A DNA stretch of 64,000 nucleotides from Lentisphaerota bacterium (GCA_015061685.1 SUWD01000011.1:4980-68979), one strand, 5' to 3'. Positions 39,976 through 46,490 are shown, counted from the stretch's first letter. Notes: generated from the sequence alone by a model not told the origin. Numbers and translations: made by a program.

Positions 39976-40088
39976 TTCAAGTCTCCTTTTTTGAAGTGGT
40001 TGTATAATATATTTTATACCGGCTGATTTAATATACCACCGCTTATCCCACATGCAAAATACGTTAACGAAAAAAGTTGTTTTTTTTT

Positions 40089-40642
40089 GATAATGTCCCA
40101 AATTTTGTGAAACCCGTAACAGGAGCTTATAAACAAACATTTTTGTTAACGTATAAAACATATCACATAAGTTGTGATTTGTCAACCCGGCAAACACGGG
40201 TTCGATGCGACCGGCTTGTCAGGGCGTAGCTTTATGCGGAGACTGATGGATGCAGTGTGAGGCAAGGTCGCGGGCAAATCAAGGCGGATTAGCAGGATCC
40301 GTCTTCGTTCCACTACGCCGGGACAAGGTGTACTATCCGTACATGACTGAACATAAAATCAAAGACTGCCTTACTCGCAGTCATGAGTACGGCATAAGCC
40401 GCACGGAATGGCGGAGAGCGAGGAGTGGCAACGGTAACGTTGCCACGGACAGCGTAAGCGAGGCCTCCGGAAAATCGACTGCAACCGCCGAGGGCGAAGC
40501 CCGAGCGGCGAGGCCGCTCTCCCGCGGCCGCAGGGAGATTTTTTGGAGAAGAAAGAGATTGCCCGCAATGCACCGCCGCCTTGTCACGGCGTAGTGCAAC
40601 GGAGACGGAAGGAAAGATTTCTCACAAAAAATAAGACAATAA
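40089..40642. mobile_element. non-autonomous MITE-like element, long copy (554 bp)
   Basis: It shares about 94-95% identical 5' (about 126 nt) and 3' (about 55 nt) parts plus internal blocks with 58718-58999. It is flanked by T8 direct repeats (40081-40088 and 40643-40650). The ends are imperfect inverted repeats. There is no conserved ORF. Confidence 0.7.
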
Positions 40643-40760
40643 TTTTTTTTAAAGCTGACGACAATCCGGTTTGAAAATATCAGGCTTTAATGCTATAGTA
40701 GGAGAAATGCCGTAAAAGGTGTATTTTTATGTATTTTCAGCAGAAGAAAGAGGTTGTTCC

Positions 40761-42068
40761 ATGTATAATATAAAGGATTTTCTGTCGTCGGAGCAGAGCG
40801 TTTGCCGGGTAACAGAGGTTTTTCAATCACTGATCGACCGCTGTGCAAAGGATAATGGCGGTACGATCGAAGTACCTGCCGGTACTTATCCGGTGGGCGG
40901 TTTGGAGTTGTGCGACAATATCCGGATCATACTTGATGCCGGAGCGGTATTGCAGGGCAGTTGTGATTTGGCGGATTATCCGCTGCATGACACGGTCAAT
41001 GATTATCCTTTTGACGAAGGACAGGACGGGGTGCGAGCGATATTTTTTGCCCGCAACCGGAAAAATATCACCATTGAAGGACCGGGCAAAATCTGCGGCG
41101 GCGGCAAAGGATTTGATGATTGCGGCACCCGGCGTGCCCGTCCGAGAAATATTCTTTTTGCCGGATGTGAAAATGTATTTATCCGTAATCTGACACTGGA
41201 GGAATCCGGATTCTGGAATCAGCACTATCTGCAGTGCCGTTGTGTCCGTCTGGACGGGGTGAAAGTTTACAGCCTTTACGGTACGAATAACGATGGTATA
41301 GATATCGACTCCTGCTGTGACGTGATAATCCGCAACTGCCGAATCGATTCCCAGGATGATGCGATCTGCCTGAAAAGCAGTACCTTTGCACCCTGCGAAA
41401 ATATTCTGGTGGCGGACTGCATAACCTCGACCCACGCCAGCCACTTCAAACTCGGCACCGAATCCCACGGCGGTTTCCGCAATATCCGTGCGGTGAATCT
41501 GCTCATGCGTCCGAGTCCTCTGGCGGTAAGCACCCACGTTGGCGGCGGCGACCGCCGGGGGGCATCCGGAATCAGTCTGGGGGCGGTTGACGGAGCGTTT
41601 ATAGAGAATATTGTGGTGGAAAATGTCACTATGGATGGAGTCCGGGTACCGTTTTTTCTGCGTCACGGTGACAATGCCCGCTCTTATCCGGGGATGCCTG
41701 CCTCCGGGCCGGAATTTGTACGCGGGGTTACGTTGCGTCGGATAACGGCTTACGGGGCATCGACGCAGGGGTGCTACATGATCGGTCTGCCGGATGTACC
41801 GATGCAGGATGTGACATTGGAAGATTGCCGATTTGAATTTGAGGGCGGGGCACCTGCCCGGTGGGCAGGTATTTCGGTTCCTGATGATCGTAAGATCCAT
41901 TGTGACATGGAGTCATTCGGCACGTTGAGTGCTTACGGAGTATTTGCCCGTTACATAGACGGGCTTACGCTCCGGAATGTTGAATTTTCCGCCATAGCTC
42001 CTGAAGCCCGTCCGGCACTGCGTTACGAGTATTGCAGTGACGTGACTTTTGACGGAGTAAAAGGGTGA
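40761..42068 (+). CDS. right-handed beta-helix glycoside hydrolase family 28-like protein (pectate-lyase-fold)
   Basis: N-terminal GGTIEVPAGTYPVGGLEL, and NDGIDIDSCCDVIIRNCRIDSQDDAICLKS, are typical of GH28-type catalytic repeats. No signal peptide seen. Confidence 0.75.
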   Translation: MYNIKDFLSSEQSVCRVTEVFQSLIDRCAKDNGGTIEVPAGTYPVGGLELCDNIRIILDAGAVLQGSCDLADYPLHDTVNDYPFDEGQDGVRAIFFARNRKNITIEGPGKICGGGKGFDDCGTRRARPRNILFAGCENVFIRNLTLEESGFWNQHYLQCRCVRLDGVKVYSLYGTNNDGIDIDSCCDVIIRNCRIDSQDDAICLKSSTFAPCENILVADCITSTHASHFKLGTESHGGFRNIRAVNLLMRPSPLAVSTHVGGGDRRGASGISLGAVDGAFIENIVVENVTMDGVRVPFFLRHGDNARSYPGMPASGPEFVRGVTLRRITAYGASTQGCYMIGLPDVPMQDVTLEDCRFEFEGGAPARWAGISVPDDRKIHCDMESFGTLSAYGVFARYIDGLTLRNVEFSAIAPEARPALRYEYCSDVTFDGVKG

Positions 42069-42087
42069 ATTTCCGGTGGAGGAGATC

Positions 42088-43263
42088 ATGGCTCCGGTAA
42101 AATTGATTTTTGCTTCTGACTTTGCCCCGATACGGCACTTCGCACCGTTGATGAAAGATTCTCCGGCGGCAGTGTACGGCGATTTGCTTGACCGTTTGAA
42201 AAAAGCTGATTATGCGATAGTCAATCTGGAATCTCCTCTTGCCTGTCCGTCAGGTAAATTCATCGCCAAAAGCGGGGCGGCTTTTTCCGGGGAAGTCGAA
42301 CATATTTCCTCTCTTGCTGCCGGGAACTTCAAAGCGGCGGTCATGGCAAACAACCACACCTTTGACTGCGGTTACGATGGTTTTGACATCAGCAGGAAAC
42401 TGTTGATATCAAACGGTATAAGTGTTGTCGGTGCCGGTGATGATCTTTCTGAAGCAAGAAAGCCGCTTGCCATTGAGGTAAATGGTGTGAAAATCGCCCT
42501 TTTTGCCATCTCCGAGGGTGAAGATATGCTGGGAGCAACTGAAAAATCCCCCGGAGTACGCCCGTGGGAAGTTGATTTTCTGGCACAGCAGATCCGGGAC
42601 GCCCGCAAAGATTTTGATGTGATCCTGATTTCGGCACACTGCGGCTTGGAATACCAGCCGTACCCATCATATTATGTCTATGAAGCCTTTGAAAAATTTT
42701 CTTCCGCCGGAGCGGATATGATTATCGGTCACCATCCGCATGTGCCGCAGGGAATGACATTTTTCGGCAAGACTCCGGCATATTTCAGTCTGGGCAATTT
42801 TGTTTTTTACCAGCCTTTGCCGCTCTTTCACCGCAAGACCGGTTACTTTCTGGAATTCGAGGTTGACCGCAGCGGTCTGATTTCCCATAAGGAAGTGCCT
42901 TACCGGATCGGGGATGATGCCCTGCATCTGCTTGCCGGGGCTGAAAAGAGTGAATTTGAGCATCTGTTTGCCAAGCTTTCAGCACCGCTGAAAACTGGAG
43001 AGGGGGCATTGCAGGCATGGCATGCGGTTTTGGCATACAATGGAATTGCCGGATTTGAGAATGAATTGAAAAAAATTCTTGATACCATGCACAATGACCC
43101 GGTCAAGGGTGCGGCAATGCTCCGCAACCGGGTGAGCTGTATGCAGCATAATACTCAGTGGATCGACGGGATGAGCCGGATAATGACCGGGGAGATCTCC
43201 TCGGCTCCGGCAGAATTGATTTCAATGGTTGAAGAATTTATGACCAGAGTTATTGAAAAATGA
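42088..43263 (+). CDS. CapA (PGA_cap) family metallophosphatase-fold protein
   Basis: The VNLESPL, MANNHTFDCGYDG, SAHCGLEY and GHHPHVPQG motifs match the CapA/PgsA family. The ATG at 42088 is preceded by GGAGGAG. Confidence 0.75.
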   Translation: MAPVKLIFASDFAPIRHFAPLMKDSPAAVYGDLLDRLKKADYAIVNLESPLACPSGKFIAKSGAAFSGEVEHISSLAAGNFKAAVMANNHTFDCGYDGFDISRKLLISNGISVVGAGDDLSEARKPLAIEVNGVKIALFAISEGEDMLGATEKSPGVRPWEVDFLAQQIRDARKDFDVILISAHCGLEYQPYPSYYVYEAFEKFSSAGADMIIGHHPHVPQGMTFFGKTPAYFSLGNFVFYQPLPLFHRKTGYFLEFEVDRSGLISHKEVPYRIGDDALHLLAGAEKSEFEHLFAKLSAPLKTGEGALQAWHAVLAYNGIAGFENELKKILDTMHNDPVKGAAMLRNRVSCMQHNTQWIDGMSRIMTGEISSAPAELISMVEEFMTRVIEK

Positions 43264-44108
43264 AAAGAGTTATAGTGTGTGATTCCGGTCTTGGCGGATT
43301 GAATGTCGCTGCCGGATTTTTTGCTTCTCCGGGAGGTGTTTCCGGGGAAAAGTGCGAGGTGATCTACTTTAATGCTTATCCGGAAAAGGGTTCCGGATTC
43401 AATACTCTGCCGGATGAGCGGTCACAGGAAGAACTTTTCCGGGTGATTCTGGAGAGTATGAAAAAGTATTCTCCGGATCTCTGTCTGATCGCCTGCAATA
43501 CCTTGTCCATTGTGTACGACCGTTTGGCAAAGTGGTATCAGCCGCCGTTTCCGGTAAGGGGAATAGTTGATGCCGCCGTTGAGGCGATGGCGGAGAAACT
43601 TGCTGCTGATCCGGATGATTCGCTTTTGATCCTCGGAACTAAAACGACAGTGGAATCAGGTGTTTACGCTTCGGCTCTTATTGATCGCGGTTTTGCTGAA
43701 AAGCGGATAAAATCTCTGGCGTGTCCCGGGCTGGCGACCTTGCTTGAATCCGATCCGGCTGCTGCTGAAGTTGCAGAAAAATTATCATATTATGCCGTTG
43801 AAGCAGTGAAAAAATTCCCCGGTATCAGAGGGAAACTTTATTTGGCATTCTGCTGTACGCACTTTGCCTTTGCCAGAGATTTGTGGATCGAAAAATTTTC
43901 CCGGCACTTCCCGGAAGGTATCGGCGTGATCGACCCCAATCAGGTGCTGGCTGGGAAATGCGGTTTTCAGGCGGAGAAATTCAGTTACTTATCAAGGATC
44001 GATTTCTTTCCGGGAGCCAGAGAGAATATGAGCAGATATTTTTCGGTTCCGGCTCCGGCGATAGCGGAGGCGTTGCTTCAGGCAGAGGCGGACTCCGGAC
44101 TTTTTTGA
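43260..44108 (+). CDS. Asp/Glu racemase family protein (glutamate racemase-like)
   Basis: VCDSGLGGLNV, ACNTLS and CCTHF motifs are present, giving two catalytic Cys contexts as in MurI. It overlaps the CapA stop by 4 bp. Confidence 0.7.
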   Translation: MKRVIVCDSGLGGLNVAAGFFASPGGVSGEKCEVIYFNAYPEKGSGFNTLPDERSQEELFRVILESMKKYSPDLCLIACNTLSIVYDRLAKWYQPPFPVRGIVDAAVEAMAEKLAADPDDSLLILGTKTTVESGVYASALIDRGFAEKRIKSLACPGLATLLESDPAAAEVAEKLSYYAVEAVKKFPGIRGKLYLAFCCTHFAFARDLWIEKFSRHFPEGIGVIDPNQVLAGKCGFQAEKFSYLSRIDFFPGARENMSRYFSVPAPAIAEALLQAEADSGLF

Positions 44109-44136
44109 ACGATCAATTTTCATGGAGAATTATTCA

Positions 44137-45117
44137 ATGGATAAAAAATGTGTGGTTTTGTTGACCGGTGCCGGTGGAGATGCCCAGGGCTGGGGAAACA
44201 TGCAGGTTACTCAAGCGGTAAAAGAAGCGGTCATTGCCAATGGTTTTGATTGCCGGATAGTGGAAGCGGAAAACAAGGAAGATATGCTTGCCGGTCTCAA
44301 TGCCGGTAAGTGTGATATTGTCTGGAGTGCTTTGTATTTCTTTACCGGCAGAGAAGATATCATCGGCATACCGCCGGATGCGGTCTGGGTCGCTGATGTC
44401 CTTGATGAACTTAAGATCCCTTATATCGGTCCATCGGCACAGACCATGAAAAATCTGATCGGCAAATTTGACACTCATGAAATTCTTGCCTCTGCCAAAG
44501 TGAGAGTACCCCGTCATGTGCTTTGTCCTCCGTCGGAATCCTGTGAGGTCGATTTCTTTCCGGCTTTTGTGAAACCAAATGGCGAATCACGTTCAGTCGG
44601 CATCAACGAAAACAGCGTGGTTGAGGATGCTGAAGCGTTGAAAAAACAGATCGCATTTATCCATAATGATCTGCAGCAGGCGGCTTTGATCGAGGAGTAT
44701 CTCCCCGGCAGAGAATATACAGTACTGGTTCTGGGCAACGGAGCAAAAAGGGAAATTCTTCCCGGCAGAGTCACTGTTGCTCCGGAACATTACGGCAAAT
44801 ATCCGGTATTACGCAGTGATCTGCGTGGAGTGGGTCTGACGCATGTTTCACTTCCCGACGATCATCAGGAGGAAGCTGTGGAGTTGGCAAATGCCGCCTG
44901 TGATGCTTTGGGATGCGATGACCATGTCCGTATCGACATGCGTGAAGGCATTGACGGTAAACTCCGGATCATGGAGGTAAATGGTATTCCCGGATTGAAG
45001 CCGGTAAAAAGCTGGAGTCCGCAAATCTATACGCTTTATCATCCGGATACCGATCCATATCCGGCATTGATCGGCAAAATCGTATCCTGTGCATTGGAGA
45101 GAGCTTATGGCAAATGA
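44137..45117 (+). CDS. ATP-grasp ligase, D-alanine--D-alanine ligase-like paralogue
   Basis: ATP-grasp layout (FVKPNGESRSVGI, LIEEYLPGREYTV, RIDMR...IMEVNGIPGL), but it lacks the canonical Ddl N-terminal GGxSxEHxVS block. I chose the ATG at 44137 (GGAGA 8 nt upstream); an alternative ATG is at 44122. Confidence 0.7.
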   Translation: MDKKCVVLLTGAGGDAQGWGNMQVTQAVKEAVIANGFDCRIVEAENKEDMLAGLNAGKCDIVWSALYFFTGREDIIGIPPDAVWVADVLDELKIPYIGPSAQTMKNLIGKFDTHEILASAKVRVPRHVLCPPSESCEVDFFPAFVKPNGESRSVGINENSVVEDAEALKKQIAFIHNDLQQAALIEEYLPGREYTVLVLGNGAKREILPGRVTVAPEHYGKYPVLRSDLRGVGLTHVSLPDDHQEEAVELANAACDALGCDDHVRIDMREGIDGKLRIMEVNGIPGLKPVKSWSPQIYTLYHPDTDPYPALIGKIVSCALERAYGK

Positions 45118-45832
45118 TCTGAATCGTCCGCCGGTAATATTGCTGAATATGGCTGTTGATGTGGTCAATAAATGGGAGAGCGAAATTATTTTCAGCAATT
45201 ATGTCAGCATGGTCAGTGATGCCGGAGCGGTTCCTGTCTGTATGCCGTCGATCGAAAAAGAGCAGAATATTGAAACATTGCTGGATATTGCCGATGGAGT
45301 TTTGCTCATTGGCGGCAAAGATTATCATCCGTCATATTATGCTCAATCTCCGCATCCGGAGACGGATCTGGCGAGGAAACGGCCGCATTGTGACATTGCT
45401 TTCGGGGAAGCACTTATGCGGCGGGAAGTGCCGGTTCTGGGGATTTGTGCCGGATGCCAGCTTTTGAATATCGTCAATGGCGGCGGATTGATCCAGCATT
45501 TGCCCGGTGCAGAGAATACTCATCGCGGCGGGTTGTTTCACCAAATGGAGGTCATCAAAGAGGGTTTCTACTCCAAAGCGTTGGGTTTGAAGCTGAATGA
45601 CCGGATCACGGTAAACAGTTTTCACCATCAGGCAGTTGATCCGTCGAAACTTGGCAGAGGTCTGCAAATAACCGCATTGGCGTATGACGGTACGGTTGAA
45701 GTAATTGAGGGGATCGATCCCGGCAGGATGATAATTGGAGTCCAATACCATCCGGAAAGAATGCCCGATAAGATGTCCGGTCTTTTCAGTATGCTTAAAA
45801 CCGAAGCGGAAAAGTATCATAACTCCCGTTGA
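45107..45832 (+). CDS. class I glutamine amidotransferase-like / peptidase C26 gamma-glutamyl hydrolase family protein
   Basis: GICAGCQLLN nucleophile motif and VQYHPE His-Glu motif. The start overlaps the ATP-grasp gene end. Confidence 0.8.
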   Translation: MANDLNRPPVILLNMAVDVVNKWESEIIFSNYVSMVSDAGAVPVCMPSIEKEQNIETLLDIADGVLLIGGKDYHPSYYAQSPHPETDLARKRPHCDIAFGEALMRREVPVLGICAGCQLLNIVNGGGLIQHLPGAENTHRGGLFHQMEVIKEGFYSKALGLKLNDRITVNSFHHQAVDPSKLGRGLQITALAYDGTVEVIEGIDPGRMIIGVQYHPERMPDKMSGLFSMLKTEAEKYHNSR

Positions 45833-45837
45833 AAAGC

Positions 45838-45899
45838 AAAAAAGACAGGGCTGTTGCTTACCTGTGTCAAGGTTTGGCAGCAGCAGCTGTCTTTTTCTG
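45838..45899. terminator. bidirectional intrinsic terminator
   Basis: Imperfect long stem AAGACAGGGCTGTTGC ... GCAGCAGCTGTCTT, flanked by an A-run on the left and TTTTTCT on the right. It lies between convergent genes. Confidence 0.55.
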
Positions 45900-45911: not shown

Positions 45912-46490
45912 TTATTCAGCCATTGGCGGGAAAGTGCTTTTTTCCGGCAGGCAGTTGAGTTTATCGAAGTCGAATCCCAATTCATCGGCAAGTTTACGCC
46001 AGCGTTCTTCCATTTCATCCAGATAGAGCCACGGCTGCCATCCGAGTTTCAGGTAAGTTTTTACTGCTGCTTTGCGGAAGTCATCGGTCAGCAGAGAAAA
46101 GGATCTGTATCCCTGCCTGTAGAGCCGGTGCATGGCGGCAACACTGACAGATCTTCCCAGATGGAAGCCTTGTTTTTCCGGGTTGGTCATCACCCAGCCC
46201 AAAACCCCGACGTGTGGCAACTCCGGCATATCGGTTGTTTCGGCACAGGCGGCGGCAACGAAATTACCGGTGGCTTTTTCCACGATGACCAGCATTCCGC
46301 CGTCGAGGACTTTATTGCGGAAAGCAGCCAGTCTTTCTTCATCCCAGGTACTGAAGTTGACCGATGCCCGCAGAGCATTATATTCAGCTAATTCGCTGTC
46401 TGACACGGTGCGGATCTCAAAACCGTCAGCCAGATTGATTTCGGGCAGAGCGGTTTTTTCGGCATTGAAGATCATTTTTAATTGAGCCAT
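45912..46490 (-). CDS. GNAT family N-acetyltransferase
   Basis: 192 aa with a GVLGWVMTNPEKQGFHLGRSV acetyl-CoA-binding-type motif. Confidence 0.75.
   Translation of the reverse strand: MAQLKMIFNAEKTALPEINLADGFEIRTVSDSELAEYNALRASVNFSTWDEERLAAFRNKVLDGGMLVIVEKATGNFVAAACAETTDMPELPHVGVLGWVMTNPEKQGFHLGRSVSVAAMHRLYRQGYRSFSLLTDDFRKAAVKTYLKLGWQPWLYLDEMEERWRKLADELGFDFDKLNCLPEKSTFPPMAE

Follow-up and report, generated by a model that had tools for sequence, protein, structure and literature searches.

A CapA-like, racemase and ATP-grasp gene set conserved across phyla: a candidate D-glutamate module in Lentisphaeria

What could a protein of the CapA family be doing in a genome that lacks the partners with which it normally makes poly-gamma-glutamate? 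This question is raised by a stretch of 64,000 nucleotides from a Lentisphaerota bacterium (GCA_015061685.1 SUWD01000011.1:4980-68979; hereafter the window), in which five consecutive genes at positions 40,761 to 45,832 code for a glycoside hydrolase of family GH28, a CapA-like protein, a MurI-like racemase, an ATP-grasp ligase related to D-alanine-D-alanine ligase (Ddl) and a peptidase of family C26. An initial annotation of this DNA had read the five genes as a self-contained module for making and trimming a D-glutamate (D-Glu) peptide or polymer. Part of that reading holds, as the genes belong to a conserved, non-canonical set centred on CapA, but the GH28 and C26 genes lie outside the conserved core. 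The absence of CapB and CapC was borne out at the scale of the genome: neither PgsB/CapB (TIGR04012) nor CapC/PgsC (PF14102) has a match in the host, a metagenome-assembled genome of 2.94 Mb that is 93.75% complete, and the controls match in B. subtilis.

Comparison of gene neighbourhoods defines the conserved unit as a CapA-like protein, a MurI-like racemase and a Ddl-like ATP-grasp ligase, found together across phyla. The trio of CapA, ATP-grasp and C26 genes first put forward for such a comparison is thus conserved as regards CapA and the ligase, C26 being lineage-specific and the racemase being the third core gene. We surveyed 60 genomes of the same order (36 of them of the same genus) and found the ligase gene in 19, of which 18 lie within the genus, with ligase and racemase occurring together in all 19. 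Ten related genomes share the order CapA-racemase-ATP-grasp-C26, and another has C26-racemase-ATP-grasp with CapA on a different contig. In six further genomes, CapA and the racemase are adjacent (47% and 38% identity) and the ligase (60% identity) sits beside unrelated genes. In these "unlinked" Lentisphaeria the CapA-racemase pair is preceded on the same strand by genes for RNase R, a DUF2059 protein, a DUF362 ferredoxin-domain protein and a ureidoglycolate-lyase-like cupin (L044:9476-13552 in G018, with equivalents in L045-L048).

The set extends well beyond this order. A search of 1.8 billion representative proteins recovered about 25 full-length clusters of the ligase subfamily (34-57% identity, 180-366 bits), ordinary Ddl-like proteins coming next at about 90-140 bits. 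A cross-phylum scan, limited to one genome per species and to ligases of at least 45% identity, found subfamily members in Desulfobacterota, Acidobacteriota, Bacillota/Eubacteriales, Leptospirales, Kiritimatiellia and Lentisphaeria, with a CapA-like gene and a racemase gene adjoining the ligase in about 30 of about 37 loci. The three genes are linked in all of these groups except Kiritimatiellia, where the one locus carries racemase and ligase only. In Desulfobacterota and Leptospirales the operon is longer, with a class IV aminotransferase, an alanine racemase (405 bits), CapA, racemase, ligase and an FGase-family amidohydrolase in that order. A conserved transporter was found beside the module in none of the loci compared.

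In a maximum-likelihood tree of the ligases, the six unlinked Lentisphaeria sequences group with other phyla (support 100/96), apart from the clade of the C26-bearing cassettes, and the Eubacteriales and Aminicenantales sequences are nested inside Acidobacteriota. Because the ligase tree mixes phyla in this way, we conclude that the module moves horizontally. The ligases of L065 (labelled Eubacteriales) and L090 (labelled Aminicenantales) pair with full support (100/100) within Acidobacteriota, which points to a recent transfer or to mis-binning. Ignavibacteria, Bacteroidota and Desulfuromonadales (L098-L133) also have distant homologues of the ligase (about 30% identity), in the form of two adjacent or fused ATP-grasp units of 560-790 aa, an arrangement that is different from the module and also unnamed.

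The ligase itself belongs to a distinct subfamily, marked by the N-terminal motifs QGWG and VWS[SA]LY, and falls below the cut-off of every Ddl model (88.6 bits against 243 for the best of them; 68 bits against 245.65 for TIGR01205). Its AlphaFold2 (AF2) model (mean confidence, pLDDT, 94) is nonetheless closest to Ddl in a Foldseek search (E 1e-22, template-modelling (TM) score 0.75). Alignment with five canonical Ddl sequences shows that the residues for ATP binding and catalysis are retained (K146, E186/E193, R265, D267, E280 and N282), the equivalents of the Ddl Lys, Glu, Arg255, Asp257, Glu270 and Asn272 being conserved. The residues that differ are Glu15 of the EHEVS motif, replaced by Gln (Q17, within QGWG), the HG motif, replaced by W63-S64, and the first Ser of GSS (Ser150), replaced by Arg or Glu (Glu15 and Ser150 in the E. 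coli Ddl numbering); there are two insertions as well. The alignment is ambiguous around Lys215/Tyr216 of Ddl, for which we make no assignment. The canonical N-terminal motif reported missing in the initial annotation is therefore indeed missing, and the acyl-donor (D-Ala1) site has been remodelled while the nucleophile side is still Ddl-like.

A separate housekeeping ddl gene was also found in the host genome. It codes for a canonical Ddl (268 bits) fused to MurB in a protein of 690 aa (L002:556-2628), where residues 13-297 match the MurB model and residues 315-612 that of Ddl. Canonical Ddl is likewise present in all five of the carriers tested from other phyla. Since every carrier tested has its own canonical Ddl, the ligase of the module is an accessory enzyme and not the housekeeping Ddl. 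The possibility that the window carries the only murI and ddl genes of the genome is thus realised for one of them: ddl has a separate copy, whereas a search for a separate housekeeping murI came back empty, leaving the racemase of the module as the only MurI-like gene of the host.

Both catalytic Cys motifs noticed at the outset are present in this racemase (ACNT and CCTH), and together with DSGLGG they are common to 17 module racemases and 7 canonical MurI sequences. The DSGxGG, ACNT, GTxTT and CCTH motifs are all kept, the GDTARxPYG loop of MurI becoming NAWPExxRGYN, and the glutamate racemase model TIGR00067 gives 64-65 bits against its cut-off of 146.65. The enzyme is probably a glutamate racemase. 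A (D/N)PxLF motif placed at the C-terminus or no more than 10 residues before it (positions 44060-44108 here) is also common to the module racemases; canonical MurI does not have it, and it may be a docking motif. We rejected the idea that it forms a terminal tail for the ligase or the epimerase to modify, as 2-10 residues follow it in most lineages.

Within the order, canonical MurI is present in none of 20 carriers and in 14 of 41 non-carriers (uncorrected Fisher p 0.002), and among 151 sampled Desulfobacterales genomes it is present in 1 of 12 carriers as opposed to 99 of 139 non-carriers (uncorrected Fisher p 3e-5). As the carriers lack canonical MurI, which would have been displaced, the module racemase is likely to make D-Glu, and it probably replaces the usual cell-wall glutamate racemase and so also serves peptidoglycan.

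The host has MurD, Alr and its canonical Ddl, and D-Glu is essential for peptidoglycan, its supply being a drug target. No match to canonical MurI, Dat or DapF was found in the host genome (93.75% complete), nor any other recognisable source of D-Glu. DapF moonlights as such a source in Chlamydia-type bacteria, a route set aside here for want of that match. The D-Glu routes described in the literature are limited to MurI, Dat and MurD2/MurL (PMC5808125). The Dat route was rejected, the single class IV aminotransferase of the host being IlvE (429 bits) and no Dat scoring above cut-off in 61 relatives, and so was the MurD2/MurL route, MurL being of an unrelated ATP-dependent family without known conserved domains.

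The third core protein has MslH as its closest sequence match in the PDB. Its AF2 model (pLDDT 95) also finds MslH first in Foldseek (E 1e-21, TM 0.63-0.67), 5'-nucleotidases coming next at 1e-9. MslH is a Ca(II)-dependent epimerase that acts on the C-terminal residue of a lasso peptide (PDB 8GQ9; PMC10406935), and the MslH authors proposed CapA as the epimerase of poly-gamma-glutamate synthesis (PMC8179263). Seven of its eight catalytic or metal-binding residues are retained in the CapA-like protein: the dyads His88/Asp91 and His295/Asp11 correspond to H90/D93 and H218/D11, and the Ca(II) ligands Glu44, Asn87 and His259 to E48, N89 and H184, all seven (D11, E48, N89, H90, D93, H184 and H218) being invariant in 19 homologues. 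In place of the remaining ligand, His261, stands G186, and two positions further along is an invariant E188. The protein scores 77 bits against the cut-off of 700 of the MslH equivalog model (NF038314), no lasso-peptide gene or precursor peptide lies among its neighbours in the window, and it has no membrane anchor (maximum Kyte-Doolittle hydropathy over 19 residues, KD(19), 1.06). Judging by the modelled fold and these residues, it is a candidate epimerase of a peptide's C-terminal residue.

This genus of Lentisphaeria has an expanded set of PGA_cap-family paralogues (up to 7 matches per genome, 25-40% identity; for example L051:7566-8744 and L052:5756-6913). One of them is flanked by a DUF4838/CBM9 protein and a sodium:solute symporter, which suggests other, glycan-related roles of soluble CapA-like enzymes.

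Which family occupies the position after the ligase or beside CapA depends on the lineage. Lentisphaeria have C26 there, Desulfobacterota and Leptospirales an FGase-family enzyme, one Terriglobia locus a class-I glutamine amidotransferase (GATase) and Desulfotignum an isochorismatase-family hydrolase, while some loci have no adjacent hydrolase. C26 is thus the Lentisphaeria occupant of a variable amidohydrolase slot in which replacement is non-orthologous. It is found beside the ligase in 10 related genomes, and its nucleophile motif (GICAGCQ) and HPE align to Lin1909. It scores 159 bits with the Peptidase_C26 model (gathering threshold 20.5) and 61.5 bits with the PuuD equivalog model, below the cut-off of 266. 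Two of the four slot families, C26 and FGase, are named after enzymes acting on glutamyl amides.

We propose that the genes are the version found in Lentisphaeria of a cytoplasmic D-glutamate module that moves horizontally and is composed of a racemase, a ligase, an epimerase and an amidase, a reading to which we would give roughly one chance in two. The MurI-like enzyme would racemise L-Glu to D-Glu, as suggested by its two-Cys site and by the displacement of MurI, and in this organism it would likely also be the source of D-Glu for MurD. The ligase, whose catalytic residues are conserved, would form an acyl-phosphate and couple D-Glu into a small amide, its substrates being our conjecture. 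The CapA/MslH-type metalloenzyme would then act on the C-terminal residue of the product, most likely by epimerising it, as the conserved MslH dyads imply, and the amidohydrolase (C26 here, the FGase-family, class-I GATase or isochorismatase-family enzyme elsewhere) would cleave the glutamyl amide bond for turnover.

The comparisons establish a soluble, mobile and conserved core of three enzymes joined by a changing amidohydrolase, with catalytic residues intact throughout, a separate Ddl in each carrier tested and an anticorrelation with MurI. The product is conjectural, the leading candidate being a gamma-D-glutamyl dipeptide or a short gamma-D-Glu oligomer. A product of the gamma-Glu-Glu type would suit C26 (gamma-glutamyl donor), FGase (N-acyl-Glu), the Alr and Dat supply genes found in other phyla and the link to CapA. 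The alternative of a D-Glu/D-Ala dipeptide is equally open.

Several observations weigh against this proposal. The substrate of the racemase could differ from free Glu, as the PYG substrate loop of MurI is replaced, and if the enzyme does racemise free Glu, a peptide epimerase looks redundant beside it. The epimerase assignment has to accommodate the Gly that stands in place of the metal ligand His261, and the isochorismatase and class-I GATase families found in the hydrolase slot are not glutamate-specific. The p values of the MurI anticorrelation are uncorrected for shared ancestry. Finally, MurI, the module and Dat are all lacking from 27 of the 61 relatives, two of these 27 being near-closed genomes (of 1 and 4 contigs). 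Another D-Glu route must therefore exist in this order, where the module is dispensable.

A more specific version of the D-glutamate proposal sees a soluble synthetase of the poly- or oligo-gamma-glutamate type, evolutionarily independent of PgsBCA, in which the ATP-grasp enzyme would build gamma-D-glutamyl peptides in the cytoplasm, CapA would set the stereochemistry of the chain end and the racemase would have displaced MurI in several phyla. We regard it as rather unlikely. A different use of the same enzymes would be stereoinversion. An amino acid would be N-acylated by the ligase and, as the C-terminal residue of the conjugate, be inverted by the CapA/MslH-type enzyme before a stereospecific amidase sets it free, giving an irreversible, ATP-driven conversion of Glu or Ala between the L and D forms. 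Such a cycle would explain why ligase, epimerase-like enzyme and amidohydrolase recur together even as the hydrolase is replaced non-orthologously, would fit both the confinement of MslH to the C-terminal residue of a peptide and the lack of MurI in carriers, and would account for what is otherwise a futile cycle of making and breaking a bond. It has a precedent in the N-succinylamino-acid racemase pathway (Sakai et al. 2006, as cited in PMC12006748). We nevertheless consider it doubtful, since the two-Cys racemase that the module always has would achieve as much without ATP, and some of the loci have no hydrolase next to them.

Readings centred on the cell wall or on catabolism fare less well. 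That the racemase is simply a divergent MurI and the ligase a second Ddl, both serving ordinary synthesis of peptidoglycan precursors, is suggested by the racemase being the sole MurI-like gene of the genome, by its anticorrelation with canonical MurI and by the ligase being closest to Ddl in both sequence and fold; yet the host and all five other carriers tested have a canonical Ddl (the MurB fusion at 268 bits in the host), the ligase reaches 88.6 bits where 243 are needed and has Gln for Glu15 and Arg or Glu for Ser150, precursor synthesis has no place for CapA or an amidase, and the set is absent from half of the genus, which makes this the least probable of the explanations considered. 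In a Van-like scheme, the peptidoglycan stem would be remodelled or decorated, by a D-Glu depsi- or dipeptide or by addition of D-Glu to the precursor, and the hydrolase would clear the competing normal intermediate. This would match the parallel between racemase, Ddl-family ligase and hydrolase and VanT, VanC and VanXY, as well as the Ddl-like nucleophile side (R265 and the L-Y after PG). It is improbable given that no M15 D,D-dipeptidase, two-component regulator or extra MurF-like gene lies nearby, that C26 and FGase families act on glutamyl amides and not on D-Ala-D-Ala, and that the carriers are diderm anaerobes of many phyla. The set could also serve the salvage of exogenous D-Glu peptides (peptidoglycan fragments or gamma-glutamyl compounds) in gut or sediment, hydrolase and racemase feeding L-Glu to metabolism. 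Breakdown is compatible with C26, FGase and the racemase, cell-wall debris is plentiful in the habitat (animal gut metagenomes contain the DNA) and a GH28 gene adjoins the set in this genome. An ATP-consuming ligase as the most conserved partner, the lack of a transporter conserved beside the module and Alr and Dat partners that point to the supply of D-amino acids all argue the other way, and we give salvage as little credence as the Van-like explanation.

Table 1. Features of the five-gene set and its flanks (positions in the window)
Feature	Position	Strand	Basis or remark
Promoter-like site TTGAAA-17-TATAGT with TG	40671-40699	+	Consensus match only; just 3' of the MITE, 5' of the first gene
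GH28 beta-helix glycosidase, without signal peptide	40761-42068	+	Glyco_hydro_28, 50 bits (Pfam, NCBIfam)
Soluble CapA/PGA_cap-family metalloenzyme, MslH-like	42088-43263	+	PGA_cap, 176 bits
Divergent MurI-like racemase	43260-44108	+	Asp_Glu_race; TIGR00067 64.9 bits, cut-off 146.65
Ddl-derived ATP-grasp ligase	44137-45117	+	Dala_Dala_lig_C; best Ddl model 88.6 bits, cut-off 243
Peptidase C26 / class-I GATase-fold gamma-glutamyl hydrolase	45107-45832	+	Peptidase_C26, 159 bits
Terminator-like hairpin and T-run after the last gene	45876-45891	+	Consensus match only
GNAT gene	45912-46490	convergent to the five genes	

The layout of the locus (Table 1) agrees with the initial annotation: the five open reading frames were confirmed as co-directional and tightly packed, Pfam and NCBIfam calls match the five families assigned, a convergent GNAT gene follows just downstream and a miniature inverted-repeat transposable element (MITE) lies immediately upstream. 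Going from GH28 to C26, neighbouring genes are first 19 bp apart, then overlap by 4 bp, are 28 bp apart and finally overlap by 11 bp, and the promoter-like and terminator-like sites flank the set on its two sides. None of the five proteins has a stretch resembling a signal peptide or a membrane anchor (maximum KD(19) at most 1.52), and all five are predicted to be soluble. The MITE is multi-copy and ends near 40650, where read depth rises and contigs break. Summed contig depth over positions 40000-40662 of the window is about 10- to 250-fold above that of the operon in four metagenomes, and the contig breaks at about 40619 are consistent with a multi-copy MITE of the IS256 type. Homologues carry the names Lentisphaeria or Victivallaceae, and DNA of the window is present in animal faecal and gut metagenomes.

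The GH28 and GNAT genes do not travel with the module. In 16 relatives no GH28 gene was found at a distance of up to about 7 kb from the cassette, nor was a GNAT homologue found near it in the relatives examined, for which reason both were rejected as members and are taken as local passengers. The GH28 gene is probably co-transcribed here. It is retained in strains about 98% identical from independent gut metagenomes, the whole stretch from GH28 to GNAT being collinear at that identity in data of 2021 and 2024. One gut metatranscriptome library contains contigs of a relative (93-99% identical to the window) that include parts of the GH28, CapA, ligase and C26 genes and the first 70 or so bases of the racemase gene, and that span the GH28/CapA and CapA/racemase junctions. 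This lends weak support to expression, as carry-over of DNA is possible.

The initial annotation did not recognise the set as a described system, and the literature searched (for the trio, for PGA_cap and for ATP-grasp enzymes with FGase or racemase) likewise yielded no description of a combination of CapA, racemase and ATP-grasp ligase. We have here a widely spread enzyme set that tracks the absence of MurI in two phyla, and a ligase that would represent a natural Ddl scaffold retargeted at its first substrate site. To our knowledge, what CapA/PgsA does biochemically in capsule synthesis has not been settled. A soluble CapA homologue in a defined four-enzyme operon would offer an easy in vitro system for the proposed epimerase function, and were the module a PgsBCA-independent synthetase, it would provide the first functional handle on CapA in capsule synthesis.

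How, then, does the module relate to known systems? With Ddl and Van clusters it shares the ATP-grasp fold, the residues for ATP, Mg and the transition state and the operon logic of racemase, ligase and hydrolase. It differs from them in a ligase that lies below all Ddl cut-offs (Gln for Glu15, Arg/Glu for Ser150, WS for HG and two insertions), in having a separate Ddl and in that no M15 D,D-dipeptidase (VanX/VanXY) or VanRS regulator was found among the neighbours of the ligase here or in related loci. As is the case for PgsBCA and CapBCA, there is a PGA_cap-family protein, a link to D-Glu supply (the racemase, with Alr and Dat in other phyla) and a gamma-glutamyl hydrolase partner, whereas the CapA of the module is soluble and without an anchor, its ligase is of the ATP-grasp and not of the Mur-ligase type and an export component is missing.

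MslH is the best match of the CapA-like protein in sequence and fold, with both His/Asp dyads and three of the four metal ligands conserved, although identity is 18% over the Foldseek alignment, His261 is Gly, the helical C-terminal domain is different and no lasso genes are nearby. PuuD is itself a C26 enzyme, and the Puu pathway (PuuA to PuuD) and the N-succinylamino-acid racemase pathway follow the same logic of attaching an acyl or glutamyl group, transforming the conjugate and removing the group with a hydrolase. The latter pathway is reported to convert D to L irreversibly (Sakai et al. 2006, as cited in PMC12006748). All enzyme families except C26 are different in these pathways, so that the resemblance is one of working and not of membership. 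In kind, the module is akin to Ddl/Van-type ligase clusters and to CapA-linked glutamyl chemistry.

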